Virus record (IMG/VR): IMGVR_UViG_3300025828_000014
DNA length: 64,000 bases
From: a virus
Reading direction: 5' to 3' (one strand)
The notes below the pieces were generated by a model. The model had not been told where the DNA came from, ran no database searches, and saw only the letters and a list, made by a program, of their open reading frames with translations. The stretch's first letter is position 1. Each line of letters begins with the position of its first letter. This document shows, piece by piece, positions 25,227 through 64,000 of this stretch. A program made the translations under genes and the position numbers.

Positions 25227-25571
25227 ATGGATGACAGATTAAAAAAAGCTCTTGATTTTAGTAATTATATGATTACGCTTGACAATCAAAAACGTATCTT
25301 GAAAGAAAAATATCAAGAAGATTTACTATATTACTATGGCGGAGGCACATTTATTTCTACAAAAGAACTTATAACGTTTTGCTATAGTATGATATCCGCA
25401 GGACAAGAAGATACAGTTATTGTTGACAGCAATGATATTCCTATTAATGTAAATTTACAAGAGTTTGTACAAGGCGTATCGGACACATATTTTAGAGCAA
25501 GCAACAAATACTATGTAGAATATGATAAGCTAAAAACAAATAGATCAGTTGAAGGTATTTTTGACACATGA
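25227..25571 (+). CDS. Hypothetical protein (possibly tail-fibre assembly-like)
   Basis: 114-aa ORF with a strong SD; function not recognised. Confidence 0.6.
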   Translation: MDDRLKKALDFSNYMITLDNQKRILKEKYQEDLLYYYGGGTFISTKELITFCYSMISAGQEDTVIVDSNDIPINVNLQEFVQGVSDTYFRASNKYYVEYDKLKTNRSVEGIFDT

Positions 25572-26398
25572 GCAAGGGTGCTCTATTAATTGCATGTAAT
25601 AACACACAAGTAGATTACATAAAACAAGCAATATTTTGTGCTGCAAGAATTAAACAGTATTTAAATATTCCAGTATCTCTTGTCACAGATAATGCTTCGT
25701 ATTTAGAAGCAAACTATAAGCATGAGTTTGATAATGTAATTGAAATATCAAGCGAGAATAACAATTATAAAACATACAGAGATGGTGTATATAAAGAGTA
25801 TAAATTACAATGGAAAAATTTAGATAGACACCGGGCATATGAACTATCTCCATATGATGAAACTATTTTAATGGATACTGATTACATCTTGTGTAATGAT
25901 TGTTTGAAATATTGTTTTGAACAATCAAATGATATTATGTTATATAAAAATTCTACTGAATTATCAGGATGGAGAGATGTGAGGGAATTTAAACATATAT
26001 CTGCAAATGGCATTGATTTTTATTGGGCAACAGTAATATATTTTAGAAAAAGTAAACAAACAGAATTATTTTTTAATCTTGTATCACACATTAAAGAATA
26101 TTGGTATCATTACAAAAATTTATATAGAATCACAGCAAATACGTTTAGGAACGATTTTGCATTTAGCATTGCAATACACATAATGAATGGCCATATGTCA
26201 GGCAATTTTGTAAAACAATTACCGGGTAAGAAATATTATACCGTAGATAAAGATATTTGCTTAGATATCAAAAACGATAAAGTAAAATTTTTATTGCAAA
26301 AAAAAGATAGTATAGATTATTTTCCTGCAATAGTTGAAGGTTGCAATGTTCATATTATGAATAAATTTAGTTTGAATAGGTTGATTGATGAGCTTTAA
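25568..26398 (+). CDS. GT-A fold glycosyltransferase, GT8-like
   Basis: 'IPVSLVTD' and 'AYELSPYDETILMDTDY' DxD motif; ATGA overlap with the upstream gene. Confidence 0.7.
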   Translation: MSKGALLIACNNTQVDYIKQAIFCAARIKQYLNIPVSLVTDNASYLEANYKHEFDNVIEISSENNNYKTYRDGVYKEYKLQWKNLDRHRAYELSPYDETILMDTDYILCNDCLKYCFEQSNDIMLYKNSTELSGWRDVREFKHISANGIDFYWATVIYFRKSKQTELFFNLVSHIKEYWYHYKNLYRITANTFRNDFAFSIAIHIMNGHMSGNFVKQLPGKKYYTVDKDICLDIKNDKVKFLLQKKDSIDYFPAIVEGCNVHIMNKFSLNRLIDEL

Positions 26399-27227
26399 TT
26401 TTACTTTATTTGCACAGAACAGTGATGTTAATTATGTTCAACAGGCAAATGTTGCTGCAATGAGTCTAAAACTAACCAATCCTACATGTAAAATTGCTCT
26501 TATAACAAATGATGTAGTTGACGACAAATATAAAGTTTTATATGATCACATTGTAGATATACCTTGGAAAGACGAAGCAGAAAATTCTACTTGGAAAGTT
26601 GAAAATCGTTGGAAAATATATCATGCTACACCATTTGATGAAACAGCAGTAATTGATACTGACATGTTGGTTTTGTCTGACATTTCCCATTGGTATGATT
26701 TATTAAAAACAAAAAATGTATATTATGTCGATCGTGTATTGACATATAGAGGCGAAGTAGCAGATAATACATACTATAGAAAAGCATTTAGAAATCATCA
26801 TTTGCCTAATTTATATGCTGGGTTTCATTGGTTCAAAAAATCAGATCAAGCACATGAATTTTTCAAATGGGTTGAAACAATTATGCACAATTGGGAATTG
26901 TTTTATGGACAATATGCTGGAGGAAAATATTTCCAAAAATGGCCTAGTGTAGATGTAAGCAGTGCAATTGCAGCAAAAATTTTACAATGCGAAGATCAAA
27001 TTACTTTAAAAACCAGTTATCCAACTTTTACACACATGAAATTACATAACCAAAATTGGGATAAATTATGGGTAGACAGTTGGCAAAAACAATTAGGCGT
27101 GTATGTTGATAATGATTGCAAACTAGCAATAGGCAATTATACACAAAGTGGCATATTTCATTACACCGAAGACAACTTCTGCAATGATCATATAATAAGC
27201 ACATATGAAAATAAATTAGGAATATAA
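26385..27227 (+). CDS. GT-A fold glycosyltransferase, GT8-like (paralog)
   Basis: 'IALITND', 'IYHATPFDETAVIDTDMLVL', 'IFHYTE'. Confidence 0.7.
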   Translation: MMSFNFTLFAQNSDVNYVQQANVAAMSLKLTNPTCKIALITNDVVDDKYKVLYDHIVDIPWKDEAENSTWKVENRWKIYHATPFDETAVIDTDMLVLSDISHWYDLLKTKNVYYVDRVLTYRGEVADNTYYRKAFRNHHLPNLYAGFHWFKKSDQAHEFFKWVETIMHNWELFYGQYAGGKYFQKWPSVDVSSAIAAKILQCEDQITLKTSYPTFTHMKLHNQNWDKLWVDSWQKQLGVYVDNDCKLAIGNYTQSGIFHYTEDNFCNDHIISTYENKLGI

Positions 27228-27799
27228 TGTTAGAAGTAAACAAAAAGCGTTATGTATATTTTGATGACGACGGTAATATTACCAGTATCAAAAACAATTA
27301 TAAAGAGTTAGGTAATTATATTATTGTTGAAATTGATGACGTTTATGATTTAGTTACTGGAAAAGAAGTTGTAAGTAATTATGTTGTGTTGTTTGATACT
27401 GTGACTAAACAACATAAATTATCTCATAGATATATCGAAGATGAATACCAGTTTGATATTAATGACCAGATATATCAAATTCCAGTAAATATCCAAGACA
27501 GACCAGACGTTGTTATTATTCATAACAAAAAAGAAAAAAAGTGGATAATAGAATTAGACAAAGCAATACAAGATAATCTTTTATCTAATAAACTTAGCTT
27601 TAGAGCTGATATGGGATTTAGTATTACAAAAGCACACGATCCTCATGTGCTATATCAATACATTTATTGTGCAATAGATGATTTAAAAAATGGAAAAATA
27701 GAAATCAATTTTGCCTCCGATTTAGAACTTGACTCTTCGGCAGTTAGTGTATATACTATAAAAAGATTTGAGAAGTATTCGTATGAGGTTGCAAAATGA
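27227..27799 (+). CDS. Hypothetical protein
   Basis: 190-aa ORF coupled on both sides (TAATG/ATGA). Confidence 0.6.
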   Translation: MLEVNKKRYVYFDDDGNITSIKNNYKELGNYIIVEIDDVYDLVTGKEVVSNYVVLFDTVTKQHKLSHRYIEDEYQFDINDQIYQIPVNIQDRPDVVIIHNKKEKKWIIELDKAIQDNLLSNKLSFRADMGFSITKAHDPHVLYQYIYCAIDDLKNGKIEINFASDLELDSSAVSVYTIKRFEKYSYEVAK

Positions 27800-28725
27800 G
27801 TAAATTTAGAATTTTAGATTATGATATCATATATCTAAGTTATGATGAGCCAAATGCAGAAAAAAACTATGCAGACTTGTGTAGTAAAGTGCCGTGGGCA
27901 AAACGTGTGCATGGAGTAGAAGGCAGTGATGCAGCACACAAAGCATGTGCTAAACTAAGCGAAACTGATAGATTTATTACTATTGACGGTGATAACATTG
28001 TAAACGCAGACTTCCTTGGTAGAGAGTTTGACTTAGATAATCACGAAGATGCACACTGGAACAGAGAAGTTGCATTTGAAAATTGTGTTGTAAGTTGGAG
28101 TGCTAAAAACACAATTAACGGACTTATGTATGGCAACGGCGGAATTAAATGTTGGCCTAAACAAAAAGTTCTCAACATGAAAACGCATGAAAATGCAGAT
28201 CCTAACAACCCACACGCCCAGGTAGATTTTTGTTGGGACCTAGAATACATACAAATAAATCAATGTCATAGTGAAATCATGAATAATGCTACACCACATC
28301 AAGCATGGCGTGCTGGTTTCCGTGAAGGTGTTAAAATGGCATTGGACAGAGGCATGAAACCTACTGTAGAAGCGTTTCAAAAAAATCATTGGAAGAACTT
28401 GCATCGTTTGTATATTTGGCTAATGGTTGGTGCGGATGTAGAAAACGGACGTTGGGCTATATACGGTGCTAGAGAAGGGTTATATAAAACAATGTGTACC
28501 GACTGGGACTTTGTAAATGTGCGTGATTTTAAATGGTTAAATGAATATTGGGATAGCAAAAATATTGATGAAGATCAAATGGAAGAAAATACAATTGATC
28601 TTGGCTACAAGCTAATTGAAGAACTTGATTTGCCTATTGCTGCTGAACCACTTGATGGAAATCAAAGTTTATTTTTTAAAACTGTGTATATGAATCCTTC
28701 AAGGATACCACGTAAAGGACGATAA
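27796..28725 (+). CDS. GT-A-like glycosyltransferase-related protein
   Basis: 'DIIYLSYDEPNAEKNY...RVHGVEGSDAAHKACA...FITIDGDN' (DxD); homologous to the C-terminal domain of 59419..61644. Confidence 0.6.
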   Translation: MSKFRILDYDIIYLSYDEPNAEKNYADLCSKVPWAKRVHGVEGSDAAHKACAKLSETDRFITIDGDNIVNADFLGREFDLDNHEDAHWNREVAFENCVVSWSAKNTINGLMYGNGGIKCWPKQKVLNMKTHENADPNNPHAQVDFCWDLEYIQINQCHSEIMNNATPHQAWRAGFREGVKMALDRGMKPTVEAFQKNHWKNLHRLYIWLMVGADVENGRWAIYGAREGLYKTMCTDWDFVNVRDFKWLNEYWDSKNIDEDQMEENTIDLGYKLIEELDLPIAAEPLDGNQSLFFKTVYMNPSRIPRKGR

Positions 28726-30110
28726 TGTCAAATCAAACAGACAGAGTAAAATATATCAATGATATCACAAAGCGGCATTTTTCGCCGACTTTTTGTTTTG
28801 CAAAATGGTATCATACAACTATCTACTTGCAAACAGGTGAAACACATAGTTGTTATCATCCAGCACCTCACAAAATTGATATTGACGAGTTGTTAACAAA
28901 TCCTAGTGCATTGCATAATACACAACATAAAAAACAAGAACGTAAGGAAATGTTAGAAGGCAAACAATGTGCTGGTTGTCAGTATTGTTGGAATGTTGAA
29001 AACATGGGAGATGATTATATCAGTGATAGGCATATTCGCAGTGGCAGCATTTATAACGAAGATAGATTAAAAGAGGTAAAGTTTAACAAGTGGGACTTTA
29101 ATGTAAATCCTGAATATATTGAAATTTCATTTGGTAATGAATGTAATTTCCGTTGCGGATATTGTCATCCAAAAGCAAGCAGCAGATACTACAATGAAAT
29201 AAGACAACACGGGCCGTATTCACAAAGTAAGAATCATAGATGTGATATTGACTGGTTCCGTATCTATGAAGAAGATTCAAACCCTTATTTACGTGCTTGG
29301 TGGAAATGGTGGCCTGAAGTTAGCAAAACATTGAACATTTTACGTATCACCGGCGGCGAACCTACTATGCAAAAAAGCATGTATAGGATGTTTGATGAAC
29401 TTGAAAAAGATCCAAAGCCACATCTTGAATTAAATGTAAACAGTAATTTTGGCGGCAAAGAAAAACAACTGGAAAAATTTACAGATAGTGTAAACAGTTT
29501 GCTTACACAAAATAAAGTAAAAAGTTTTAAGTTGTTTACAAGTTTAGATACATGGAACGAACGTGCAGAGTATATACGTGATGGATTGGACTTAAAAGTG
29601 TTTGAGCGCAATTTTGATTACTTTATGCGTAATACAACTGCACCTGTGACATACATGATTACATTTAGTTTGTTCAGTGTCACAACATTCCAAACATTGC
29701 TTGAAAAAATATTAGAACAAAGGCGTATGTATAATGATGTAAACAGCGGACGTTGGCAACGTATACATTTTGATACACCTTATTTAAAAGAGCCACTGCA
29801 ATATGATATAAACATTTTGCCTAAAGAAACTTATATACCTTATATGGAAAGCCATTTACAATTTATCAAAGACAATGTAAAAGAAGGTAGTAAAGAACAT
29901 TTTAGTGAAATGGAATATGAAAAATTTAGACGTGTTGTTGATTACATGAAAACAACTAGATACGATGTAAACAAAATTAGAGAAGGTCGCAAAGACTTTT
30001 GGAACTTCTTCAAAGAACATGATCGTAGACGTGATACAGATTTTGAAAAAACATTTCCTGAAATGAGCGACTTCTTTGCATTATGTAAGGAAGCCAATGA
30101 AACCTTCTAA
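28725..30110 (+). CDS. Radical SAM protein with N-terminal SPASM/twitch-like Cys domain (type A)
   Basis: CNFRCGYC, GGEP; N-terminal FC..KW.H...SC...CAGCQYC. Confidence 0.85.
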   Translation: MSNQTDRVKYINDITKRHFSPTFCFAKWYHTTIYLQTGETHSCYHPAPHKIDIDELLTNPSALHNTQHKKQERKEMLEGKQCAGCQYCWNVENMGDDYISDRHIRSGSIYNEDRLKEVKFNKWDFNVNPEYIEISFGNECNFRCGYCHPKASSRYYNEIRQHGPYSQSKNHRCDIDWFRIYEEDSNPYLRAWWKWWPEVSKTLNILRITGGEPTMQKSMYRMFDELEKDPKPHLELNVNSNFGGKEKQLEKFTDSVNSLLTQNKVKSFKLFTSLDTWNERAEYIRDGLDLKVFERNFDYFMRNTTAPVTYMITFSLFSVTTFQTLLEKILEQRRMYNDVNSGRWQRIHFDTPYLKEPLQYDINILPKETYIPYMESHLQFIKDNVKEGSKEHFSEMEYEKFRRVVDYMKTTRYDVNKIREGRKDFWNFFKEHDRRRDTDFEKTFPEMSDFFALCKEANETF

Positions 30111-31257
30111 AGATAATTCTTATTGTTATTATCCATTTAAGCAACTTGCAATCAGTCATTGGAATCAAGACGGTATACAATGTGTAAATCCATGCTGTAA
30201 TATAGCAAGTCCTGTTGATCCTGATCCTCTACAAACAAACAAAAACATACACAATAATGTAGAAGAATTATTCAATCTACCTCAGTTGCAAAATATCCGA
30301 ACAGAAATGTTGGAAGGAAAATATCCTCAAGCATGCCAAGGTTGTTATAATGCAGAAAAAACTATGGGCAATAGTCCAAGACTTATGTTGGACACAACAG
30401 TTGATAACAGATTAGAATGGCTTGACATCCATTTAGGCAATAAATGTAATTTACGTTGTAGAATGTGCCACCCTGCGTTGAGTAATCAACTCAATAAAGA
30501 TGCAGAGCTTTTTGAAAAAAATGGATACAAATATTGGTGGAGCAGTATACCTGATATTGAACCTCATGATATTAGAATATTATATCCTGTGTTAAAAGAC
30601 ATAACTAATATTAGAGTAAGCGGCGGAGAGCCATTGCTATCAAACCAGTTTTTAGAATTGCTTGATTATTGTATTGACAACGGATATGCTGAAAATATAA
30701 CTTTGGAGATGCATACAAATGCAACAAAATTTTCAAATGCAAATGTATACAGATTGAATAAATTTAAAAAAATAAATGCAACCTTTAGCATAGACGGTGT
30801 TGGTAAAGTATATGAATATACAAGATATCCTTTCTCGTTTGAAATACTAGAAAATAATGTCAAAAACTTTTTTAACAAGATTGACAATTATTCTGCGCAA
30901 ATCAATTTTGTAGCAACAGTATACAACTTTCTTGATATTAGAAATACTGTAAAGTGGGCAGAAAAATATAACTTTGAAGACATTGTAATTACAAATGTAT
31001 TTCCAATTGAACGAGCAATTGATGTCTGTTGGCTGCCTAATAATTTATTATTGTATGGCAGGGTTTTGATAAATGGACTAGGGTATCAAACACAAAGCTT
31101 CAATAATTACCTTGCATCATGTATTCATAATAATAAGTATAGTGTAGATAAAATACGTGAATTAAAAATAGAAACCATGCAGTTTGATAAAAATAGGCAA
31201 CAATCTTATAAAACATATTTGCATCCAGAATTAGTAAAGGTATTAGATTCTGTATGA
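30097..31257 (+). CDS. Radical SAM protein, type A
   Basis: CNLRCRMC, SGGEP; N-terminal YCYYPF...PCC...CQGC. ATG at 30097 after AAGGA preferred to the TTG at 30076. Confidence 0.85.
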   Translation: MKPSKDNSYCYYPFKQLAISHWNQDGIQCVNPCCNIASPVDPDPLQTNKNIHNNVEELFNLPQLQNIRTEMLEGKYPQACQGCYNAEKTMGNSPRLMLDTTVDNRLEWLDIHLGNKCNLRCRMCHPALSNQLNKDAELFEKNGYKYWWSSIPDIEPHDIRILYPVLKDITNIRVSGGEPLLSNQFLELLDYCIDNGYAENITLEMHTNATKFSNANVYRLNKFKKINATFSIDGVGKVYEYTRYPFSFEILENNVKNFFNKIDNYSAQINFVATVYNFLDIRNTVKWAEKYNFEDIVITNVFPIERAIDVCWLPNNLLLYGRVLINGLGYQTQSFNNYLASCIHNNKYSVDKIRELKIETMQFDKNRQQSYKTYLHPELVKVLDSV

Positions 31258-32474
31258 AAGATGATCATCTAAAAAGCAGTAAAACTTTTTGTATGTTTCC
31301 TTGGCTACACTTAAACGTGACGCCAAAAGGAGATGTATATCCTTGTTGTAGCAGTGACTATGTTGAACCTTTTGCTAATGTAAAAGATACCACATTGGAG
31401 CAAGCATTTAACACTGAACGTATGAAAAAATTACGTTTGGATATGCTTGCTGGCAGGAAAAACGAAGCCTGTGAATTTTGCTACAAGCATGAAGAAAGTT
31501 CACCATACAGTTTTAGAAAATACAGCATTGAAAAGTTTGCTGACAAATACGATGATTTAGTGCCTTTTACAAACGAAGACGGTAGCCTTGATAAATTTAC
31601 AATGGCTTATTATGACATACGTTTTAGCAACATTTGCAATTTCAAATGCAGAACCTGCGGCAGCGAATTTTCCAGCAAATGGGGGCAAGAACACAAAGAA
31701 CATGATGCTCCACCTCCTGGATTTCGTGTAGTGCAACATGCTGACGAAAGCGGCAAGTTGTTGGATCAAGTTCTTGAACAAATACCCAATATTGAACTTG
31801 CATACTTTGCAGGTGGCGAGCCATTGATCACAGATGAACACTACACAATACTTGAAGAAATGATTGCTAATGGTAGCTGTAAAGATATAACATTACGCTA
31901 CAACACAAATATGAGCAACTTTAAATACAAAAAGTATGATATACTTGATATGTGGAGCAATTTCAAAGGTGTAGAAGTCAGTGCAAGTTTGGACCATTAT
32001 GGCAAAAAAGCCGAATACATACGCAATGGCACTAAATGGTTTACAGTAGAAAACAATCTACGCAAAATTAGAGATGTAGACTTTATTGATTATCAATTCA
32101 ACTGTGTATTAAGCAACTTGAATTATGTCACACTGGGTGATTTCTTTACATACATGATTGATCAAGATTTACTCCGCAAACACGATTACATCAGCATTTA
32201 TCATTTGTTAAATCCAAGTTTTTACAGTGCGCAAAATTTGCCACCAGAAGAAAAAGAAAAAGGCACACTGGGATTGTTAAAACTAATCAATCAAATCAAA
32301 GACGAATATTGGTGTGTGCAGCATGTAGAAAATGCAATGCGTTTTGCAACCAGTGCTCATACTTGGGATGAACACGGCAAAGAGTTTATACATAATACTA
32401 GTAGACGTGATAAAATTCGCAATGAGAATTTTGTTGAAGTATTTCCAGAACTTGCAGGATTAATGAATGGATAA
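31254..32474 (+). CDS. Radical SAM protein, type A
   Basis: CNFKCRTC, AGGEP; N-terminal FCMFPWLH...PCC...CEFC. Confidence 0.88.
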   Translation: MKDDHLKSSKTFCMFPWLHLNVTPKGDVYPCCSSDYVEPFANVKDTTLEQAFNTERMKKLRLDMLAGRKNEACEFCYKHEESSPYSFRKYSIEKFADKYDDLVPFTNEDGSLDKFTMAYYDIRFSNICNFKCRTCGSEFSSKWGQEHKEHDAPPPGFRVVQHADESGKLLDQVLEQIPNIELAYFAGGEPLITDEHYTILEEMIANGSCKDITLRYNTNMSNFKYKKYDILDMWSNFKGVEVSASLDHYGKKAEYIRNGTKWFTVENNLRKIRDVDFIDYQFNCVLSNLNYVTLGDFFTYMIDQDLLRKHDYISIYHLLNPSFYSAQNLPPEEKEKGTLGLLKLINQIKDEYWCVQHVENAMRFATSAHTWDEHGKEFIHNTSRRDKIRNENFVEVFPELAGLMNG

Positions 32475-33750
32475 AGAACATCTATTAAAAAAGAATAAAG
32501 CGTTCTGTATCCTGCCTTGGATACACATGCACGCCTGGCCTGATGGTAGAGCTATGCCTTGCTGTATTGCAGACAGTGATCAACCTTTTGGCAATGTAAA
32601 AGAAAACACTATTGCAGAAGTATGGAACAGCGACAAGTATCGAGAACTACGTCTTGCTATGTTAAAAGGTGAGAAACTGGATTGCTGTAGACGTTGCTAC
32701 GAACTTGAAGACAGCACTTACATTTGGACATTGCGCAAAAATCACAATCAATGGTTTGGTGATAAGCATTTTGATTTGGTAGAAAAAACAAATGCTGATG
32801 GCAGCATTGACGAAATGCGCATGGCATACATGGACATACGTTTCAGCAATATTTGCAATATGAAGTGTAGGACATGCGGGCCTGAGTTAAGCAGTTTACA
32901 TGCACAAGAACACGGTGAACTATATGGCAAACACGAAGTTGCAAACATACTCAAAAACAACGGCAGCATTATTGTTAATGTTGCAAAGCACAAAAACTTT
33001 TGGGATGAATTGCAGCAATACTTGCCTGATGTTGAAGAAGTATACTGGGCAGGTGGTGAGCCACTGATTACAAACGAACACTATAAGATTTTAGATCATT
33101 GGATTGAAACTGGCAAAACAGATGTAAGATTACGCTATACCACAAACTTCAGTAATTTAAGATTCAAGCAAAAAAGTATTATTGATTATTGGAGAGAATT
33201 TCCTGATATTCAAGTTAGTGCAAGTTTAGATGCAATGGGTGCAAGAGCAGAATTTATGCGTCATGGAACACATTGGGAAACTGTAGAGCGTAATAGACAA
33301 GAAATGCTTGAAGCATTGCCTAACATACACTTTGAACTTACTCCTACTATAAGTTTGTATAACGTGTGGAATTGGCCTGACTTTCATATGAATTGGGTAG
33401 AACGTGGATTAGTAGACATTGAAAATTGTAGATTAAACATGCTTACAGATCCTGACTTTATGAGACTTGATAGTATACCCAATGATTTTAAAATAGAATT
33501 ACGCAGCAAGTATATTGATTACAAAGCATGGGCATATGATAAAATCAAAGATCGTATTGCTACAAAGCCTGATGTTGTAAAAGATGTATTAGGAAAAATT
33601 GATAGTGTTATACAGTTTATGAACACTGGCAAACTTGATACTGTAAAACTAAAGCAATTCTTTGAAAAAAATCACGGATTAGATCAACATCGCAAAGAAG
33701 ATTTTTGGGCAACATTTCCAGAGTTGGAGTGGCTAAGAGCATATGTCTAA
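32467..33750 (+). CDS. Radical SAM protein, type A (tandem paralog of 31254)
   Basis: DIRFSNICNMKCRTCG versus DIRFSNICNFKCRTCG in the preceding gene; FCILPWIH...PCC...CRRC. Confidence 0.88.
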   Translation: MDKEHLLKKNKAFCILPWIHMHAWPDGRAMPCCIADSDQPFGNVKENTIAEVWNSDKYRELRLAMLKGEKLDCCRRCYELEDSTYIWTLRKNHNQWFGDKHFDLVEKTNADGSIDEMRMAYMDIRFSNICNMKCRTCGPELSSLHAQEHGELYGKHEVANILKNNGSIIVNVAKHKNFWDELQQYLPDVEEVYWAGGEPLITNEHYKILDHWIETGKTDVRLRYTTNFSNLRFKQKSIIDYWREFPDIQVSASLDAMGARAEFMRHGTHWETVERNRQEMLEALPNIHFELTPTISLYNVWNWPDFHMNWVERGLVDIENCRLNMLTDPDFMRLDSIPNDFKIELRSKYIDYKAWAYDKIKDRIATKPDVVKDVLGKIDSVIQFMNTGKLDTVKLKQFFEKNHGLDQHRKEDFWATFPELEWLRAYV

Positions 33751-34711
33751 TTTACTAAAAATCACACCAATGTCAGAACCTTATGCTACCATTACGTGGC
33801 AAGTGAATAACTTTTGTAACTTCCAGTGCAGTTATTGTAATCCAGGAAACTGGGCAGGTGATAATCGCAACAATGGAGCTCTTGATACTTACAAAGAAAA
33901 TGTAAGAAATATATTTCAACAATATCAAGACCGAGGCTATAAGTATTTTAAAATATTTTACAGCGGAGGAGAACCTACTCATTGGGAAAACTTTATTCCA
34001 CTTACTGAATACTTGAAAGAAGAATTAGGTGATAGTCTTACTGTTGCTGTAAACACAAACCTATCAAGGCCTTTACGTTATTGGGAACAGCATTATCATT
34101 TGTTTGATGACATTGTTGCAAGTTTTCATGTAGAGTTTAGCAAAAAAGATCGTTATATTGAAAATGCAAAATTTTTATGCGACAAGGTTGATTATCTTTG
34201 CACAAAGATGCTAATGCACGAAGAACGCTTTTGGGAAGTAAAAGAGTTTGGAGAACGGGTGCGCAAAGAAGTGCCAAACTATAACTTAGAATGGACTCCA
34301 CTGTTTGATGAAATGAGTGTAAATGCAGGCCCGTGGGAATACAAAGATCCTGCAAAAGTAGAGTTTTTAGAAAAAGCACAATTTGAAAGTGTGCAAACTA
34401 TTTCGAAACCTCACAGACAAAACAAAGCAATTAGCAATGCACATTACGACACAGGAATAGAACCTGTAAACAGCAATAAAATTATTGCTGCCCGACAAAA
34501 CTTTTTTGCTGGGTGGAAATGTTTTGTAGATGATGCACTTTTTATCAATCCACGTGGTGATATCAGTAGTGCGAGTTGTGGCGTAGGTAATAATCACGGA
34601 AATATATTAGATAAAGACTTGACATTTGATTTGCAACCAGTTATATGTAGTAAACAACATTGTCATTGTGGAACTGATATAATTATTCCAAAGGAACCTA
34701 TTAATGATTGA
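33743..34711 (+). CDS. Radical SAM protein with C-terminal Cys-rich domain (type B)
   Basis: CNFQCSYC, SGGEPT; C-terminal 'NFFAGWKC...I.P.G....SC...GNI...C...CHCGTD'. Confidence 0.85.
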   Translation: MSNLLKITPMSEPYATITWQVNNFCNFQCSYCNPGNWAGDNRNNGALDTYKENVRNIFQQYQDRGYKYFKIFYSGGEPTHWENFIPLTEYLKEELGDSLTVAVNTNLSRPLRYWEQHYHLFDDIVASFHVEFSKKDRYIENAKFLCDKVDYLCTKMLMHEERFWEVKEFGERVRKEVPNYNLEWTPLFDEMSVNAGPWEYKDPAKVEFLEKAQFESVQTISKPHRQNKAISNAHYDTGIEPVNSNKIIAARQNFFAGWKCFVDDALFINPRGDISSASCGVGNNHGNILDKDLTFDLQPVICSKQHCHCGTDIIIPKEPIND

Positions 34712-36745: not shown

Positions 36746-36763
36746 TATGACTCCGATGTTTTT

Positions 36764-36783
36764 TAAATATACGTAGTTATTTA
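36764..36783. promoter_or_regulatory. Overlapping divergent late-promoter motifs
   Basis: TAAATA on + at 36764-36769 and on - at 36778-36783, within a 53-nt divergent gap; both genes have a GGAG SD. Confidence 0.5.
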
Positions 36784-36798
36784 TTTGGAGTAATTTTT

Positions 36799-38556: not shown

Positions 38557-38566
38557 ACAGTATTTA
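38544..38566. promoter_or_regulatory. Divergent late-promoter motifs
   Basis: TATAAATA on + at 38544-38551; TAAATA on - at 38561-38566, 4 nt before the ATG at 38556. Confidence 0.55.
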
Positions 38567-38575
38567 AGGCAATAT

Positions 38576-41699: not shown

Positions 41700-41703
41700 A
41701 ATG

Positions 41704-41751
41704 TATTTAACCACCAGATCTAATAAACATATACTTAATGGATTGTAAATA
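41704..41751. promoter_or_regulatory. Divergent late-promoter motifs
   Basis: TAAATA on - at 41704-41709; TAAATA on + at 41746-41751 followed by AAGGAG and the ATG at 41768. Confidence 0.55.
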
Positions 41752-41767
41752 TAGTAAGGAGTTTTAC

Positions 41768-53422: not shown

Positions 53423-54665
53423 TAATTAAGTCTTCAAAATTTGTTTGATTACGGCTTTTGTCTAATCTACGATTGAACTCTACAGTTTGTGGCCATTTGT
53501 GAGACAAGTCCTTGGCTAATAGAAAGTTAATGTTATCATCAATTTGTCGTAATGTAATAGGTAGTATCTTATCGTTTATACTCATAATAGGATAATTTTT
53601 TACATCTTCTTTAATTTTAATTAATTCTTTTACAACTTTTTGCTTGTATGTGTTTGGTAAACACTGAGCACTTAAAACATTTGGATAGTTTACTCTGTGC
53701 GAGTAAAACACAATGCCCATTGTGTTTAAAAAATAATCGATAATCTGTGGCAATTGTAAAACATTACCTGCTTGGACAGTGCAAGCACCTACAACATATT
53801 TAACATTGGGAAAGCTCTTAAAGATTTTGACATTTTCTTCCACTTCTTCAAACTTACCATTGCCTCTAATGTATTCATACACATCGTGTAGCCCGTCTAT
53901 GCTTACATTTACGACCACGTTTTTAAACTTAGGCCAATAGTCGTGTATGGTCCTTCCGCCCTTTATACCAGTCACTGTGCCGTTTGTAGCATACTTTATT
54001 TCAATGTTTTCGCCGTATGGTGCTAACATATCTAAAATGCGATAGTGACTAGGATCCATCAGTGGTTCGCCACCAGCAAACTCAATTCTGCGGAAATATG
54101 GAAGCAATTTTTCAAGATTGCTCCAAAACTCTACACTGTCTTCAAACAAGCCAATGTATGGTGCTCGTGTTAATCCTAGTTTGCGCACAGCATCCACTAG
54201 GTAGTTGCCTTCTTCCTCATAAAACTGTTCTACTTGTTCCCAGTCTTTCCACTGTGTGCTGTCTAATGGATTGCACATTCTACACTTGAGATTGCACAAG
54301 TTGTTAATTTTTATCTCAATAGTAGGAAACTCAAACGGCATGGTATAGTCATCATTGAGTTTGTCTAATGCATCAGGATACAAGTTTATACGTGCATCAG
54401 GAAAACTATCACGTATGTGTCTTTGCCTTAAACTTTCTACACCTTGTGCTTCTAAATCAAAACAAGGAACACATTCGGCTGGTATTTCATTATTTAATAC
54501 TTGCTCACGCACTCTAAGCATATTTTTGTTATTCCATGCACTTTCCAATGTTTCATCTTGTATCCAGCCAATTGGTTGACTACGACAGCATACTTTGATT
54601 GCACCGTCTTCTCTAGTAGCAAGACCTGTAAAAGGGTGTAAACAAAAAGTTTTACTTGGATGCAT
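53406..54665 (-). CDS. Radical SAM protein, type A
   Basis: FCLHPFTGLATREDG...VCC...CVPC; CNLKCRMC; AGGEP. Confidence 0.88.
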   Translation of the reverse strand: MHPSKTFCLHPFTGLATREDGAIKVCCRSQPIGWIQDETLESAWNNKNMLRVREQVLNNEIPAECVPCFDLEAQGVESLRQRHIRDSFPDARINLYPDALDKLNDDYTMPFEFPTIEIKINNLCNLKCRMCNPLDSTQWKDWEQVEQFYEEEGNYLVDAVRKLGLTRAPYIGLFEDSVEFWSNLEKLLPYFRRIEFAGGEPLMDPSHYRILDMLAPYGENIEIKYATNGTVTGIKGGRTIHDYWPKFKNVVVNVSIDGLHDVYEYIRGNGKFEEVEENVKIFKSFPNVKYVVGACTVQAGNVLQLPQIIDYFLNTMGIVFYSHRVNYPNVLSAQCLPNTYKQKVVKELIKIKEDVKNYPIMSINDKILPITLRQIDDNINFLLAKDLSHKWPQTVEFNRRLDKSRNQTNFEDLINDYAN

Positions 54666-55347
54666 TTGCTATACCCCATTCACGTTCTTTACACCAAAAA
54701 CATTCGTTACAGTATGGCACATGTTGATAAGGTTTGTATGTTGTATAGTCTAGCCCTTCAAATTCTCCTTCACAACTACGTGTTATTTCCAACAGTTCGC
54801 CGATTTCATAATCAACATACTGTTTTATAATCCAATTTTTACGAACCATACTAAAAGGATGACACACTGTTACACCCATATGTTTTGTTTCGGCAGGCAA
54901 TCTAGCATATTCTCTGTCCTCGGGAGCACCTTCAAACTTTTCATCTGGATTAAGTGTCACAGCAGCATACCATGCGTCAAGTTTGTGTAGGTGTGCAATG
55001 TATTCATTGTGAGCTCGTAGTATAATCCTGTTACCAGGCTTGCTTTGTCCATACTCGTCTGTGATATAGGTTGTGTTTGGCTCTTCCATCTCTGGTGGTA
55101 TAAAGCCCTCTATATGTTCAATGCGATTATGAAACTTTTCACGGAACCAATGAACCACATCTTTAGCAACCCAACGTTGCCAAGGGCGTGTTTTCCACAT
55201 ACGCACTTGTGTAGTGAAGTAGATATCAGCGTTTGTATTACTCAACACAAAATAAGCCAGCAAAGCACTGTCAGCACCGCCACTTAGACTGATGCCAATT
55301 CTATTCCAATTTCTTTTAAGGGGGATGTAAACTCCGTCGATTACCAT
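54652..55347 (-). CDS. PP-loop ATP pyrophosphatase, QueC-like
   Basis: 'ISLSGGADSALL' PP-loop; C-terminal Zn motif 'TRSCEG...CNECFWCKER'. Confidence 0.7.
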   Translation of the reverse strand: MVIDGVYIPLKRNWNRIGISLSGGADSALLAYFVLSNTNADIYFTTQVRMWKTRPWQRWVAKDVVHWFREKFHNRIEHIEGFIPPEMEEPNTTYITDEYGQSKPGNRIILRAHNEYIAHLHKLDAWYAAVTLNPDEKFEGAPEDREYARLPAETKHMGVTVCHPFSMVRKNWIIKQYVDYEIGELLEITRSCEGEFEGLDYTTYKPYQHVPYCNECFWCKEREWGIANASK

Positions 55348-55352
55348 ACTAA

Positions 55353-55380
55353 ATTATAACACATTTTAGTAATGTGTCAA
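55353..55380 (-). promoter_or_regulatory. Sigma70-type promoter TTGACA-N16-TATAAT, 5 nt before the ATG
   Basis: On the - strand: TTGACA 55380-55375, TATAAT 55358-55353, then TTAGT and ATG (55347). Confidence 0.7.
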
Positions 55381-56172
55381 GTGTCCTATTCCTATGCGTT
55401 CTTTGAATTCTTGAGTAAATTTACAGTCAATACGTAGTCCATATTCTTGTTCCATAGAAAATTCACCACCGTGCCAGTCTTGATCATTGAAAAAACAAGC
55501 ATGTGAATTTACATAATGCTTGCGTTTGTGCTCTGGATCCCAAATATAAAAGCCACGCTTGGTGTTTGGACGTATATGAATAAACTCGATGTTGTGATCA
55601 GTATAGTCTTTGACCTCTGGATCTAAATCTCTATGTTCAAAAGGTCTACTACTTGCTTCACTTACAAAAAACATAACTCTACCTACGTGTTCTACAATTG
55701 ATTTTTCTTGTAGTTGTGCTATCCAACGCATAACACCTGGAAAGTAATCACTTTCTTCTGTTGCTGCTCTTTGTTCAGCACCTCTGTCTTTCATATTAGT
55801 GCCTTCTTCTTGTAGCACATAGTAAGTATACGGATCATGTGCGCCCATGGCACTTTTCAAATATCTAACAAATTGATTACGTTCGGTATAATTTGTAAAG
55901 TCTGTAGGAAAAATCTTATCGCCTTCTATGCGTATAGGATTATCTGCTTCTAGTGCTTGGTATTCTTCAAATGCTTTGTATACAGGCTTCCAATTGCCAA
56001 TATAGCTCATGTCTTTTAAGTCAAACCCTGCTGGCATCCATGTGCCTTCTTTGGCGAATGGTCTTGCTTGAGCCATGCCTCTACAGATTTCTGCATTCAA
56101 ATTTTTAAATCCTTCTATGTCTAAAAAAGGATCCAAGTCGATGTAGGGTAAGTTTTCGAAACCACGTATCAT
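55366..56172 (-). CDS. Putative 2OG-Fe(II) oxygenase-fold protein
   Basis: 'VGRVMFF...PFEHRD' (HxD) and distal 'FNDQDWHGG....YGLRIDC'. Confidence 0.5.
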   Translation of the reverse strand: MIRGFENLPYIDLDPFLDIEGFKNLNAEICRGMAQARPFAKEGTWMPAGFDLKDMSYIGNWKPVYKAFEEYQALEADNPIRIEGDKIFPTDFTNYTERNQFVRYLKSAMGAHDPYTYYVLQEEGTNMKDRGAEQRAATEESDYFPGVMRWIAQLQEKSIVEHVGRVMFFVSEASSRPFEHRDLDPEVKDYTDHNIEFIHIRPNTKRGFYIWDPEHKRKHYVNSHACFFNDQDWHGGEFSMEQEYGLRIDCKFTQEFKERIGIGHLTHY

Positions 56173-56198: not shown

Positions 56199-56855
56199 AT
56201 GCTAACTAACACTGAATTTACAACAACTCCTGCTACACTTTTAGAAGCCAATGCGCTATGCCAAGAAATGACAGGTAAAACTGTTTTAAACAAACCTAAA
56301 GGAGATTTTTTCTATGATCCATGGGAAATATTGCCTGAATATAGCGGCACAGTATTTGAACGTTTGTTACAACCTTTACAAAACATAGGCGAAGCAAGAA
56401 TTATACGTCAAGAGTCTGGAACTTGTTATTTTGCTCACAGTGATATTGACAACAGATATCATTTGAATATATCAGGAGATCAAGCAGCATTATTTGACCT
56501 AAACAATAACAAAATGTATCCTTTAGAATCAGACGGCAAATACTACCTAATGGATGCTGGACGTAATCACAGTGCTGCTAATTTTGGCCAATTTCCAAGA
56601 TATCAATTGGTAGTTAGATGTTTACTTAAAAGATCGACTTGGGTAAACAAACCAGTAGAAATTATTGGTGCCGGAGAAAATCCAAGATTTGTATTTGACA
56701 AATATATTTCACCGTTATTAAACGAAATCAACAGACGCGGAGCAATGAATAAATTTTGTATTACTACTACAGGTGTAAAGTTTATAACAAATGATTTTTG
56801 GATAAATGAATTACGTCAAGTTATGCCATATAAATTTTCTTTGCTAACTCAATAA
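56199..56855 (+). CDS. 2OG-Fe(II) oxygenase, Asp/Asn beta-hydroxylase-like
   Basis: 'EARII....GTCYFAHSDID.RYHLNI' and 'HSAANFG..PRYQLVVR'. Confidence 0.65.
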   Translation: MLTNTEFTTTPATLLEANALCQEMTGKTVLNKPKGDFFYDPWEILPEYSGTVFERLLQPLQNIGEARIIRQESGTCYFAHSDIDNRYHLNISGDQAALFDLNNNKMYPLESDGKYYLMDAGRNHSAANFGQFPRYQLVVRCLLKRSTWVNKPVEIIGAGENPRFVFDKYISPLLNEINRRGAMNKFCITTTGVKFITNDFWINELRQVMPYKFSLLTQ

Positions 56856-57489
56856 ATTCTTTAGGGTAATCGTTATTAAAGTTATCTAACACGACACCTC
56901 CATAAAACTTAAAAGAAAAGGTTTTGCTTGGATCTATTCCGTTGTAATTTAAATATTCAAAAAGTTTTGCTTGTCTATCTTTGCTAATATGATCTAGCAC
57001 ACTTTCTATACTTACTTCTGGTTCGTCATCACTGTAACAAAAAAAATGATTTATAGTTCTAAGCTGATCATCTATGATAAAAAAACTGCTTGGATGTAAA
57101 CTGTATTTCCAAATGCCTTTATTTCTATAGTCCTGTAGTATAGTGAGCATTTGTTCTTGCCAGTCTGGCAATACTTTATCAAAATTACGCCAATCACAAT
57201 TAGCAAGTTGCCAAAAGTCGTCGCCTTGTATGTTAAAAATTATTCTACGTTTAATACTGTCTAGTTCTTTTACATCTAGTGTATGAGGTGCTTCTAGTGT
57301 ATACTTAAATTCTCTACGCCATTTTTCGTTCAGCACACTTTGAGGTAAACATTGATTTTTGTGATAGTTTTGATCTACTGTGTAATGAACACTAAACAGA
57401 TTGTTTTGTCTGTCTATCTTGCTTGTATATACAAGATTATTTCTACACAGGCCTTTGCCTGGCACTGTGTTGTAATAGTATTCAAACAT
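56821..57489 (-). CDS. Hypothetical protein, possible degenerate kinase-like fold
   Basis: 'WRREFKY', 'KGIWKYSLHPSSFFIIDDQLRTINHF' echoes the catalytic-loop/DFG layout but lacks the catalytic Asp residues. Confidence 0.4.
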   Translation of the reverse strand: MFEYYYNTVPGKGLCRNNLVYTSKIDRQNNLFSVHYTVDQNYHKNQCLPQSVLNEKWRREFKYTLEAPHTLDVKELDSIKRRIIFNIQGDDFWQLANCDWRNFDKVLPDWQEQMLTILQDYRNKGIWKYSLHPSSFFIIDDQLRTINHFFCYSDDEPEVSIESVLDHISKDRQAKLFEYLNYNGIDPSKTFSFKFYGGVVLDNFNNDYPKEFIELAKKIYMA

Positions 57490-59345
57490 TAGCTATAAAG
57501 TGGAATAAACTTTGTTTCGCCGTTAACAGTTGCTTGTAACCAACTATCAGGTGTGCTTGTATTACTAGGTATTACTCCTGTTTCTCCATGAACTTTAAAA
57601 TCTTTTAATGATACCGCAAGTTGTCCATTAGAATCAAATATCATGTAATTGCTACCATAGGTTGGTGATTGTGTAGCAAAGATTAATTCGCCTGGGCAAC
57701 CTCTATGCTCACCTGCCGATAAGCTAATTGTTGCATCATCAGGAACTTTTGCATAAATGCCTGCAATAGTGGCAAATTGCATTTCGGTATCGTTTTCGTA
57801 AGTAGAATCTTCTGGATCAGGATTGATTGCAATTGCTGCATTAAATGCAAGGGCAGGTAGTTTTGTTCCTGCTGTAATTGGTAATGGGTCTAACCATGAA
57901 CCACCAATAGCTTCTACTCTAAAACCTTGTTGATACCAGTCGGGAATATTTGGCTGTGTAGCACGGTAAAATTTTCCGGTTAATGCTGGGATACTGTATG
58001 CGCTTTCAACAATTACACTTATACCTTCCGATGTTATTTCGATAGTGTCAAGATCTAAACTTGTAGCAACGATATTATCTGCATATACAGTAGTTGTAGA
58101 TAATGTATTTGCTGAAGGATCAAAAACTTCTAACCCATTATCTGCAAAAATATTACCGTTTAGACTAACACCGCTCCAGTGTTTCAATGTTGCATCAAAT
58201 AAAACACCGTCTGAATGTGTATAATTACCTGAATGCGTTCCTACATGGTGTCCATTTAATGTTGTTGCACTAACAATTTCTGCATTTAACTGATTAGCTG
58301 AATAGTCAAAAACATAGTTGTCATCACCGTTTAAAAGATTACCCTTAAAGCTGCCAACAAAATTACCAGATATATCTTCTAAAAAGGTTCTGGTTTGCAA
58401 TGCAAAAATCACATCGCCACCGTCTACAATATTACCTTCAAGTGTAGTTGAAGATTGAGATACTATAGATCCGTGGAACTCGCCGGTTTCAAAATCTAAC
58501 AATATATTGCCTTGGTCGTCGTATACACTAGCTTGTAACATTCTCAAACTTGGGTTCAAAACTATATCGTATCCGTCATCTACAATATCGCCTGATACAT
58601 TTCCTGCAAAGGTTTCGGTATTTGCGTCATATATAACTTGGCCGTTTATTAAACTTCTAATATCGCTATATAAAGGAATATTAATTTTATGAGTGTCAAC
58701 ATCTATTAGAATGTTTGAAGACTCGTCAATTATATTTCCGTAAAACTTACCTTTAAAAATATCTGTAGCTTGATTGTATGCGTAATCATAGTTTCCTGGA
58801 GTGATTTGCTTTTGTATACTTCCTGAGTATGCAATGTTATTCAAACGATTGTTTTCAACATCTAATATTACAACACCGCTGCTATCAAAAACGTTACCTT
58901 GGACATCAGCAATTATTTTTGGAAAGTCTGAATCTGTTGAAAGCAAAACATTACCGTTGGAATCAACAATGTTACCTGTAAAGTTCCCATAAAATTTGTT
59001 TTGTAATCTATCATAAGAAAGAACATTGCCAGGACCGTAGATGTCAGATGCTAATGGAACGTTAGAGCTATGCTGATTAATCACTACATAGCCTTTATTG
59101 GTTAATGTTCCGTCAAATGTTCCATGAAATGTTTTTAGAGACGAATCGTATGCTATATCACTATCAATATCATAAACATTTCCTTGAAATGAACCATAAA
59201 ATTTTCTAATATCTAAATCGAAAACAATTTCGCCATTGTGATTTTCAATATTTGCTCTAATTGTTCCTGAACTACTATCAACAATCAGCGAGCTATCGCC
59301 TCCTACAATATCAATGCGATATTGGCCACCTTCATATAATTCCAT
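57489..59345 (-). CDS. Repetitive fibre-like/virion protein
   Basis: Many 'F.G.F.GNi.D..g.v..D' repeats; C-terminal 'TPDSWLQATVNGETKFIPLY'; ATAAATA and an AGGAG SD upstream. Confidence 0.55.
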   Translation of the reverse strand: MELYEGGQYRIDIVGGDSSLIVDSSSGTIRANIENHNGEIVFDLDIRKFYGSFQGNVYDIDSDIAYDSSLKTFHGTFDGTLTNKGYVVINQHSSNVPLASDIYGPGNVLSYDRLQNKFYGNFTGNIVDSNGNVLLSTDSDFPKIIADVQGNVFDSSGVVILDVENNRLNNIAYSGSIQKQITPGNYDYAYNQATDIFKGKFYGNIIDESSNILIDVDTHKINIPLYSDIRSLINGQVIYDANTETFAGNVSGDIVDDGYDIVLNPSLRMLQASVYDDQGNILLDFETGEFHGSIVSQSSTTLEGNIVDGGDVIFALQTRTFLEDISGNFVGSFKGNLLNGDDNYVFDYSANQLNAEIVSATTLNGHHVGTHSGNYTHSDGVLFDATLKHWSGVSLNGNIFADNGLEVFDPSANTLSTTTVYADNIVATSLDLDTIEITSEGISVIVESAYSIPALTGKFYRATQPNIPDWYQQGFRVEAIGGSWLDPLPITAGTKLPALAFNAAIAINPDPEDSTYENDTEMQFATIAGIYAKVPDDATISLSAGEHRGCPGELIFATQSPTYGSNYMIFDSNGQLAVSLKDFKVHGETGVIPSNTSTPDSWLQATVNGETKFIPLYS

Positions 59346-59363
59346 AGCATGTCTCCTATAGTA

Positions 59364-59370: not shown

Positions 59371-59384
59371 CGGTCAATTAGGTC

Positions 59385-59413
59385 TTGACAATGTTATTTA
59401 GAACATATATAAT
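59385..59413 (+). promoter_or_regulatory. Consensus sigma70 promoter TTGACA-N17-TATAAT, 5 nt before the ATG
   Basis: TTGACA 59385-59390, TATAAT 59408-59413, ATG 59419, no SD. Confidence 0.8.
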
Positions 59414-59418
59414 ATGAT

Positions 59419-62545: not shown

Positions 62546-62756
62546 TTTTTCAGTAAGACAGTTACAATTAGAAAGTGCAAGAGCATTAAGCACAATGGAA
62601 GCAACAAATAACAATATTTGGATGTTTAACAAAGAAGCACATCATAACAGTTGGAATTGGTATTGTGCTGTTATACATTGGTATATTGACCAATACGGTG
62701 ACTTGCCTAGCAAAACAGGACCCGGAAAAAACATTAGGTTAGTTCTTGATGATTGA
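62532..62756 (+). CDS. Small hypothetical protein (74 aa, Trp-rich)
   Basis: Fills the gap and overlaps both neighbours in operon fashion. Confidence 0.55.
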   Translation: MDLSNFSVRQLQLESARALSTMEATNNNIWMFNKEAHHNSWNWYCAVIHWYIDQYGDLPSKTGPGKNIRLVLDD

Positions 62757-63663
62757 GCTTGCAAATCCATATAAGCATATTACATGGGAATGTACAACAG
62801 TATGCAATTATGCCTGTTCATATTGTGCACCTGAATTGCATGATAGTAAATATAGGTGGCCTTCATCTAAACAAACTGATAAGATCATAAACTTAGTAAA
62901 GGATTTCAGTAACGGTGAAAAAATTGCGTTTGATATTATGGGAGGAGAGCCAACACTATGGCCTAGCTTAGAGATTTTTTGTGAAGCGTTAAAGGACATA
63001 GCAGATATTAGTTTTAGTTCAAATGGTTCTCGTACTTTAAGGTATTGGAAGTCTTTCAAAGCCCCTTTGGATAGAATTTATCTTTCGTTTCATGCCGAAT
63101 TTGCTGATGTAGATCATTTTTTGAATATTACAAAAATTTTGTCCTCAAAATACATTACAAATGTGTTTATTATGTATAATCCTGCATACAAACAAAAATG
63201 TTTAGAATTAGCCGATAAAATAGAATCAAATAATATACAAAATTGTAGTTTTGCATTCAAGTTTATAAATGATGATGCAATAAATTACACAGAAGAAGAT
63301 AAACACCTTATGTCTAGAACATATCAGACATGGAATGAAAACAGTATTGATTATAGAAGGAGTCATTTTTCCAATTCAAAATTAAAACAAAATGGAAAAG
63401 TAATTAATGATTTATATGCTTATATTAGAGACGGGAAAAATAAATATAAAGGTTGGAAATGTCAGCAAGGTGATAATTATTTATACATAGATAAAGAGGG
63501 CACTATATACGGTGCAGCATGTAGGACAGTCAAATATGGAAATGTTTGGACGGATTACAAAATCAATTTACAAAGAATAATTTGCAAAAAAAATACATGT
63601 AGTTGTGTGGCAGATATAAGGTTAACAAAAAAATGGAATATCACTACTCAAGAATTAACTTGA
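62746..63663 (+). CDS. Radical SAM protein, type B
   Basis: CNYACSYC, MGGEPT; NKYKGWKCQQG...AAC...GNV...CKKNTCSCVAD. Confidence 0.85.
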   Translation: MMIELANPYKHITWECTTVCNYACSYCAPELHDSKYRWPSSKQTDKIINLVKDFSNGEKIAFDIMGGEPTLWPSLEIFCEALKDIADISFSSNGSRTLRYWKSFKAPLDRIYLSFHAEFADVDHFLNITKILSSKYITNVFIMYNPAYKQKCLELADKIESNNIQNCSFAFKFINDDAINYTEEDKHLMSRTYQTWNENSIDYRRSHFSNSKLKQNGKVINDLYAYIRDGKNKYKGWKCQQGDNYLYIDKEGTIYGAACRTVKYGNVWTDYKINLQRIICKKNTCSCVADIRLTKKWNITTQELT

Positions 63664-64000
63664 GCAAAACAAATTATTCTTTATTGGATAAAGATAAAGT
63701 AACAGTTTTAAAGAATTGGTCATTTGAAGAATTAAATGACATTTATGTTAGATATTGTCGTCACAAAAAATTTAAAAGCGTGATGCCCATCTTTTTAGAA
63801 GATTATAAAGATAATGAAATATTAGGGTATTATGATGACAACGGTCAGTTAGTTGCATGGAGTATGATGTTGTTATATCCTAGTCAACTAAGCGTAGTTG
63901 CAGATCAATTTGCATGGAACTATCATAATCCAAAGTTAAGATTGGGTATTGTTTCACTAGAACACGAATGTGCATATTATAAAAGTTTAGGTTACAAGTA
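63633..64000 (+). CDS. Ate1/Bpt-like (ATE_C, GNAT-like) aminoacyl-tRNA-dependent transferase, 3' partial; absent from the ORF track
   Basis: Manual translation from ATG 63633: MEYHYSRINLSKTNY...ILGYYDDNGQLVAWS...QFAWNYHNPKLRLGIVSLEHECAYYKSLGYK, resembling ATE_C 'GKLVAV...YDP....LSLG..S.L.EI..A...G..Y'. Confidence 0.55.
   Translation, partial: MEYHYSRINLSKTNYSLLDKDKVTVLKNWSFEELNDIYVRYCRHKKFKSVMPIFLEDYKDNEILGYYDDNGQLVAWSMMLLYPSQLSVVADQFAWNYHNPKLRLGIVSLEHECAYYKSLGYK

Follow-up and report, generated by a model that had tools for sequence, protein, structure and literature searches.

The window analysed here (64,000 nt of IMG/VR record IMGVR_UViG_3300025828_000014, part of a 76-kb viral contig) is a fragment of a T4-superfamily jumbo myophage, and it carries, behind a set of baseplate and fibre genes, an island in which 14 radical S-adenosylmethionine (rSAM) genes (28725-63663) are mixed with glycosyltransferases (GTs) and sugar-tailoring genes. 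The island consists of a fixed core followed by exchangeable cargo, which ranges from 1-2 rSAMs in the cultured Ralstonia phage RsoM2USA to 22 in a close relative of the window. We propose, at about an even chance, that it makes a heavily edited amino/guanidino-sugar glycan in the cytoplasm, which is placed on virion fibre proteins; the adjoining Ser/Thr-rich fibre/baseplate proteins are the most likely acceptors. A fuller version, in which a large clade of aquatic jumbo phages has a pathway on the scale of secondary metabolism, with at least 12 twitch-domain rSAMs that edit a guanidino glycan on the fibres, varied from strain to strain and using chemistry shared with predatory Bdellovibrionota, is proposed only tentatively, at clearly less than an even chance. 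Genes are named below by their positions in the window.

For comparison of the island architecture, a scan with 27796 retrieved at least 598 viral contigs, from which 80 loci were kept. Their gene order was near-invariant: a fibre-type gene, 25227, 25568, 26385, 27227, 27796 and usually an rSAM with an N-terminal twitch domain (N_Twi). The genes after the core varied widely, with a second GT2-like gene and a methyltransferase (MTase)-like gene further on. In 64 of 69 loci, the gene directly 5' of the core encoded a protein of the 23210/24128 family. In the complete relative G002 (382 kb), a stretch of 30 kb contains all 14 rSAMs; on one side of them stands the core and on the other a late fibre-like gene, the homologue of 57489, which ends the island. 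The island extends past the end of our window, and in the close relative G007 it runs on for at least 24 kb beyond that point and holds 22 rSAMs. Even genomes that are 90-99% identical in protein differed by gains and losses of single genes. A fixed core with variable cargo is not one fixed pathway; thus the dedicated tailoring pathway claimed in an earlier note on this DNA stood as a conserved, glycan-centred and fibre-linked cluster, and has to be given up as a single pathway. The co-occurrence in related phages that the note suggested checking was found as strong synteny, and its statement that no replication genes are interleaved in the island also held within the window. Purifying selection acts on almost every island gene (dN/dS 0.01-0.30 against close relatives), and not one island protein has a membrane segment, so that all are predicted to be soluble. 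Five contigs from bacterial metagenome-assembled genomes (L106, L108, L110, L114 and L143) carry fibre genes together with the core and look like binned phage contigs, and their bacterial labels were not used; misbinning of this kind may explain some "bacterial" N_Twi records.

The count of 14 rSAM genes was borne out, 13 of them being intact. The CX3CX2C motif is found in the genes starting at 28725, 30076, 31254, 32467, 33743, 44351, 45727, 46628, 49542, 50542, 51594, 52478, 53406 and 62746. Twelve of the 13 intact genes matched Pfam Radical_SAM (where scanned) or NCBIfam models, and six (28725, 30076, 31254, 32467, 44351 and 53406) scored 227-391 bits against NF033640 (N_Twi_rSAM), for which the curated cut-off is 170 bits. 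With these matches, and with the structural genes free of the motif, a chance origin is excluded. In the intact frames a GGE-type motif follows CX3CX2C, except in 49542, which has no plain GGE but scored above the Pfam cut-off. Both motifs are also present in the fourteenth gene (45727-46635), which has an internal TAG at 45958-60. Five relatives have Leu there (TTG/CTG/CTT), which leaves a read error or one nonsense mutation as the origin of the TAG; stop-codon recoding was rejected as its cause, given this Leu and the nine genes that end in TAG.

Three rSAM types were distinguished: six with an N-terminal twitch, seven short ones with a C-terminal Cys cluster, and 49542. In the first type the twitch Fe-S domain precedes the rSAM domain (a Pfam SPASM match covers residues 13-78), and its four N-terminal Cys, which are predicted to ligate an Fe-S cluster, were invariant across 46 sequences. 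BtrN has an auxiliary cluster of four Cys (PMC9012708), but its sequence similarity to the island enzymes is marginal (E 0.013) and the island twitch domain is N-terminal. Pairwise identity among the island rSAMs is mostly 20-35%, indicating that they are old paralogues rather than recent copies, and their dN/dS against close relatives is mostly below 0.1 (0.01-0.07 for the four tandem genes at 28725-33750). Models of maturases of peptides made on ribosomes and modified after translation (RiPPs) all scored far below cut-off on the island rSAMs, and no precursor peptide with Cys/His repeats was seen among island open reading frames (ORFs) of at least 60 aa. In one Oligoflexia genome (L154:6804-8711), a 49542-type rSAM (residues 10-377) is fused to a 59419-type GT (400-630), which ties the rSAM chemistry to a glycosyl pathway. 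We found neither a function for NF033640 nor an account of the island of this phage clade in the literature searched.

Among 50,697 deposited phage records, only RsoM2USA (MG752970) carries the core. Its ORF354-347 correspond, in order, to 25227, the GT8-like pair, the 27227 slot, 27796, 28725, the catalytic domain of 59419 and the MTase-like gene, are 28-45% identical to the window and stand behind a fibre-type gene as they do there (PMC8504454); ORF355, directly 5' of the core, is a member of the 23210/24128 family. All core ORFs are annotated as hypothetical, and the 27796 and 26385 families had no match in any other deposited phage. Unlike the window, RsoM2USA has a core with a single rSAM, and its other rSAM belongs to a separate cluster. 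No sigma70-type promoter was seen 5' of ORF354. Because this phage is cultured and its core is a minimal set of eight genes, the question of the target is directly testable in it. Its second mini-cluster, ORF203-199 (L082:19012-24588), consists of an SGNH-like gene, an N_Twi rSAM, two further SGNH-like genes and a carbamoyltransferase-like gene.

Of the seven GT-like genes in the earlier note, four gained support from a GT-A fold or from paralogy. The model of 25568 (pLDDT 95) matched LgtC with Z 14.5 (root-mean-square deviation 3.2, 207 residues aligned) and glycogenin with Z 14.3, and D103, D105 and H262 are invariant in the family; 26385 is its paralogue. As neither has a Pfam GT8 match, their GT8 assignment is at fold level only. 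For 27796, a GT-A fold (Z 8-9.7) and an invariant DxD were found, and 59419 is its paralogue, in which a varying number of N-terminal repeats precedes the catalytic domain; the repeats have about 100 aa each, and the homologues of 59419 measure from some 220 aa to more than 740 aa. The other three (35393, 39280 and 42658) belong to a single family; by features, the named cluster closest to it is GT10 (score 0.80), which is a GT10/GT-B lead only; there was no hidden Markov model match to PF00852, with which the control was also silent. Searches of solved structures by sequence, using profiles of the 25568, 27796, GT10-like and MTase-like families, gave nothing useful, and no named family in PHROGs matched. 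The MTase-like family has 3269 relatives, none of them annotated. Two by-eye resemblances, of 25227 to a DUF4376-like fibre chaperone and of the 27227 repeats to CBM5/12, were dropped as profiles did not support them. A Trp-containing repeat (L058:8613-9992, L033:3785-5197) is inserted in some 27227 homologues and, in other phages, stands at the start of a 26385 homologue.

The amidinotransferase, aminotransferase and epimerase of the earlier note were all matched in databases. The amidinotransferase 37555 is nearest to the streptomycin enzyme StrB1 (E 5e-53), the DegT aminotransferase has only 200 aa, a size conserved in its relatives, and the short-chain dehydrogenase/reductase (SDR) 41738 resembles nucleoside diphosphate (NDP)-sugar 4,6-dehydratases. 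Of its three 2-oxoglutarate (2OG)-Fe(II) enzymes, one AspH-like protein scored above cut-off and two matches were weak or by motif only; the same applies to the four SGNH-like, two MTase-like, QueC-like (E 0.04) and ATE-like (E 0.008, in a full-length relative) genes. Aminoglycoside pathways are typically marked by a StrB1-like amidinotransferase, a DegT aminotransferase and BtrN-like rSAMs, and the authors who described phage S-SCSM2R took a similar trio for antibiotic synthesis (PMC12801897). That infection yields a diffusible small molecule of the aminocyclitol or aminoglycoside kind nevertheless seems very unlikely to us: the window holds no cyclitol synthase, exporter or resistance gene, the minimal RsoM2USA core has neither the aminotransferase nor the amidinotransferase, and the linkage to fibre genes would be left unexplained.

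Promoters, given here as motif matches and not as measured starts, divide the region into two classes. The T4-type late motif TAAATA was found 5' of the homologues of 17138 in 8 of 8 loci, of 21685 in 38 of 38 and of the fibre-like gene 57489 in 8 of 8. A sigma70-type consensus heads the core operon and was conserved in 45 of 50 distinct loci, the background being 1%; such motifs also head the 59419 and 54652 units and the recombination gene gp47; read-through into the core from a late promoter at 23177 is possible. Early expression, as predicted from these motifs, fits enzymes that would be needed before the fibres, but also DNA or host targets. On a DNA target, the island would hypermodify phage DNA, or phage or host tRNA, with edited glycans against restriction or anticodon nucleases, its GTs acting in soluble form on modified bases during replication. 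The solubility of all the enzymes fits this, as do the island's QueC-like gene, a QueD gene elsewhere in G002 and the known addition of glycans to DNA by phage GTs (10.1101/2023.12.21.572611). We judge it improbable. G002 gave no match to Tet_JBP (PF12851) and only one, canonical, match to thymidylate synthase (PF00303), two profiles that divergent enzymes could escape, and no match to TGT (PF01702), a profile that divergent DpdA types escape; these absences disfavour a DNA target. Moreover, ThyA and DHFR of G002 are canonical, the island oxygenases are AspH-like, and the linkage is to fibre rather than replication genes. The QueD gene of G002 lies beside a GT-like gene, far from the island, in a region that also has an A-type Fe-S carrier gene (L159:4669-8716).

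Bacterial counterparts of the island were also found. The 27796/59419 family occurs mainly in Bdellovibrionota, where a six-gene set comprises two GT2-like genes, the MTase-like gene and three rSAM types, and the phage-only genes are missing. Five of these genomes have 13-25 NF033640 matches each, and across the phylum the trait is patchy (9 of 41 at a strict threshold). The islands have housekeeping flanks, and homologues of the AspH-like, amidinotransferase, 47625 and MTase-like genes stand there beside multi-membrane transferase-like proteins. The N_Twi-rich islands (L162-L167; G011, G012, G013) are about 30 kb long and apparently undescribed. In Photorhabdus (L152:6780-14300), a 59419-type GT belongs to a low-GC cluster with a GT4, two GT2, a nucleotidyltransferase, an ABC transporter and HlyD, which possibly makes a glycosylated secreted product. 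From this we infer that the enzyme set makes a glycoconjugate, which bacteria deliver via the membrane and which the phage keeps cytoplasmic, adding a soluble GT8-like pair.

The occurrence of the same enzymes in Bdellovibrionota chromosomes beside envelope-type transferases, the early promoter motif and the presence of lipopolysaccharide (LPS) transferases such as LgtC in GT8 would also suit a pathway, borrowed from these bacteria, that remodels the host envelope (LPS core, O-chain or surface glycoprotein) and excludes competing phages; host recognition clusters of pelagimyophages have been read in this way (PMC7029224). We consider it unlikely. The phage island has no membrane, flippase or lipid-carrier genes, which disfavours the envelope as the target, a lytic phage is short of time for envelope renewal, and neither the strict linkage to one fibre-type gene nor the late motifs on parts of the island would be expected. 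Accordingly, of the two targets named in the earlier note, virion or host surface, the latter lost ground.

Strict linkage to Ser/Thr-rich fibre-type genes, GTs at a second fibre locus of G002 and the slot behind a fibre gene of the cultured phage Atu_ph07 favour the virion. At the second G002 locus (L161:6743-12999), GT-A genes flank a collagen-repeat fibre gene with an S74 chaperone domain. In Atu_ph07 (L081:31909-38647, minus strand, directly after the fibre gene), a Cupin gene and several rSAM/SPASM genes, all annotated as hypothetical, surround a gene whose 296-aa product has three Cys-His-x-x repeats at its end; judging from the sequence, this cluster has the look of a RiPP-type system that modifies a virion protein, and its presence at the same genomic position suggests that the slot modifies virion proteins. 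The contrast between the soluble phage island and the Bdellovibrionota sets, which lie beside multi-transmembrane transferase-like proteins, was likewise counted for a virion target. Glycosylation of mycobacteriophage virions has been reported (Freeman et al. 2023, as cited in PMC12619734), with soluble phage GTs acting on structural proteins in the cytoplasm, the mode proposed here.

On the proposal of a virion glycan, host sigma70 polymerase would transcribe the core operon early, so that transferases and Fe-S enzymes could mature before the late fibre proteins appear. Starting from a host NDP-sugar, the SDR dehydratase, the small DegT enzyme and the StrB1-like amidinotransferase would make first an amino sugar and from it a guanidino sugar, and the twitch rSAMs, with a predicted auxiliary cluster of four Cys, may act like BtrN to oxidise or epimerise C-H positions of the sugar. 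Further groups would be put on by the 2OG oxygenases and the MTase-like, SGNH-like, QueC-like and ATE-like enzymes. The two GT2-like enzymes are candidates for priming the acceptor, the phage-only GT8-like pair for extending the chain and the GT10-like enzymes for capping it; the core would thus provide a scaffold, and the exchangeable cargo would diversify the surface between strains.

Several observations weigh against this proposal. The promoter motif of the core is of the early type, as at gp47, and not the late one, which fits modification of DNA or of the host equally well. The top Foldseek match of 27796 is SunS, a weak one (E 4e-4, TM 0.34). It is hard to fit 14-22 rSAMs into one glycan. 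G002 encodes QueD elsewhere, by which a deazaguanine route stays conceivable, and PA5oct-like phages have the 23210 family and no core. Finally, no glycan has been detected on any carrier of the island, the virion study of RsoM2USA (PMC8504454) not having looked for any.

The many strand switches and the mixture of early and late motifs could also be accounted for if the fibre genes adjoin a hot spot of recombination that gathers independent modules, namely the GT core, genes for a guanidino sugar, polyamine and acyl genes, and rSAM cassettes. The products of these modules would differ, and the core alone would act on the virion. Close relatives do differ by single genes, the RsoM2USA rSAMs are split over two loci, and the G002 cargo includes ornithine decarboxylase-type, saccharopine-dehydrogenase-family and AMP-binding enzymes. 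We give this reading a small chance, as the same set of six GT, MTase and rSAM genes is met again in phages and in bacteria, one rSAM forms a single protein with a GT, and every rSAM of G002 is in this one island.

Where the earlier note knew of no characterised phage pathway of this composition, we found that similar compositions have been published, which are likewise without assigned function. One is an interchangeable block in the Campylobacter phages CP220 and CPt10 (Firehammervirus; PMC2853527), exchangeable as in the window, with five rSAMs, an amidinotransferase and GT-A genes; this rSAM module was called highly unusual in 2010 and left without a function (PMC2853527). Two rSAM types of the window, 49542 and 51594/62746, have homologues among those of the block. 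Unlike the window, the block has no N_Twi rSAMs, measures about 10 kb against 39-60 kb and follows gp5/PAAR rather than a fibre operon, and profiles of the core GTs (A1-A3) gave no significant match to its GT-A genes. The host recognition clusters of pelagimyophages and cyanomyophages (PMC7029224) are, like our island, large and variable, lie in the structural region and contain fibres, GT8-type genes and rSAM cassettes, and ORF302-310 of S-SCSM2R (PMC12801897) combine a DegT-type enzyme, an inosamine amidinotransferase and an rSAM among GTs. In contrast to these clusters, the window belongs to another phage clade, is dominated by rSAMs and conserves a fixed core. The clusters sit between VrlC and the neck gene gp14; the window has baseplate and fibre genes upstream of the island. 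No neck gene was recognised 3' of the G002 island by eye within about 5 kb, where no profile search was run. The "Moraphages" also have the core GTs and, going by their description in PMC12619734, appear to be a separate lineage. The island thus resembles published fibre-adjacent glycan islands and differs from them in scale, in its N_Twi family and in its conserved core. The glycosylating mycobacteriophages, for their part, reportedly use few GTs and no radical SAM or other tailoring enzymes. Islands of this type are very common in aquatic viromes (at least 598 contigs), with up to 60 kb and more than 20 Fe-S enzymes per genome. If our proposal is right, it would answer the 2010 puzzle of phages with many rSAM genes, and it would bring a new sugar-editing radical chemistry and a role for NF033640, the first for this family. 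The fuller version given above would also make this the first virion coat edited by radical SAM enzymes.

Table 1 Features of the island and its upstream flank (positions in the window)
Feature	Position	Strand	Remark
Baseplate and fibre genes (baseplate protein, Collar-domain fibre, two more fibre proteins)	17138..23181	+	late type, 5' of island
Two paralogous Ser/Thr-rich (20-22%) virion-type proteins (23210, 24128)	23210..25177	+	candidate glycan acceptors
sigma70-type promoter motif TTGACA-17-TATACT	25181..25209	+	heads core operon
Core gene 1, 114 aa, phage-only	25227..25571	+	1187 protein clusters, no Pfam match; RsoM2USA ORF354
Tandem GT8-like glycosyltransferases 25568 and 26385	25568..27227	+	GT-A fold, invariant DxD; RsoM2USA ORF353/352
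Core gene 4, 190 aa, phage-only	27227..27799	+	no Pfam match
GT2-like GT-A enzyme with helical C-terminal domain	27796..28725	+	candidate initiating transferase; model pLDDT 88
Four tandem N-terminal-twitch rSAMs (28725, 30076, 31254, 32467)	28725..33750	+	NF033640; 28725 is the core one
Short rSAM with C-terminal Cys cluster	33743..34711	+	
Amino/guanidino-sugar module: four SGNH-like, three GT10-like (lead only), amidinotransferase, DegT, SDR	34704..43758	both	
StrB1-like amidinotransferase	37555-38592	-	database match
DegT aminotransferase, 200 aa	41112-41714	-	database match
SDR dehydratase/epimerase	41738-42679	+	database match
MTase-like gene, N_Twi rSAM 44351, rSAM 45727-46635 (in-frame TAG), rSAM 46628	43749..47677	+	
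385-aa protein (47625) and AspH-like 2OG-Fe(II) oxygenase	47625..49503	-	both with homologues in Bdellovibrionota island
rSAM with C-terminal twitch	49542..50588	+	homologous to CP220 rSAMs
Three short rSAMs, N_Twi rSAM 53406, QueC-like PP-loop protein, 2OG-Fe(II)-like protein	50542..56172	-	
sigma70-type motif	55353-55380		heads 54652 unit
2OG-Fe(II)-like gene (+), 222-aa gene (-)	56199..57489		
Fibre-like repeat protein, 618 aa, Ser/Thr 17%	57489..59345	-	late promoter motif; putative structural protein, second candidate acceptor
sigma70-type promoter motif	59385-59413	+	heads 59419 unit
Second GT2-like enzyme with N-terminal repeats	59419-61644	+	RsoM2USA ORF348
MTase-like gene	61598-62545	+	RsoM2USA ORF347
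74-aa ORF	62532-62756	+	between MTase-like gene and rSAM
Short rSAM (62746) and ATE-like gene	62746..63976	+	ATE-like gene cut by contig end

The structural proteins of the window are nearest to those of Atu_ph07, Phosso and Rak2-like phages, and 5' of the window lie baseplate genes along with gp46, gp47 and a gene for a gp55-type sigma factor, all identified from the translated sequences. The fibre-like gene with the late promoter motif (57489-59345), the 74-aa ORF (62532-62756) and the continuation beyond the window had been overlooked in the earlier note. The 74-aa ORF is kept in G002, G006 and G007 and has no Pfam match. The 222-aa protein (56821-57489), encoded directly 3' of the fibre-like gene, is strongly conserved and has a kinase-like look by eye.

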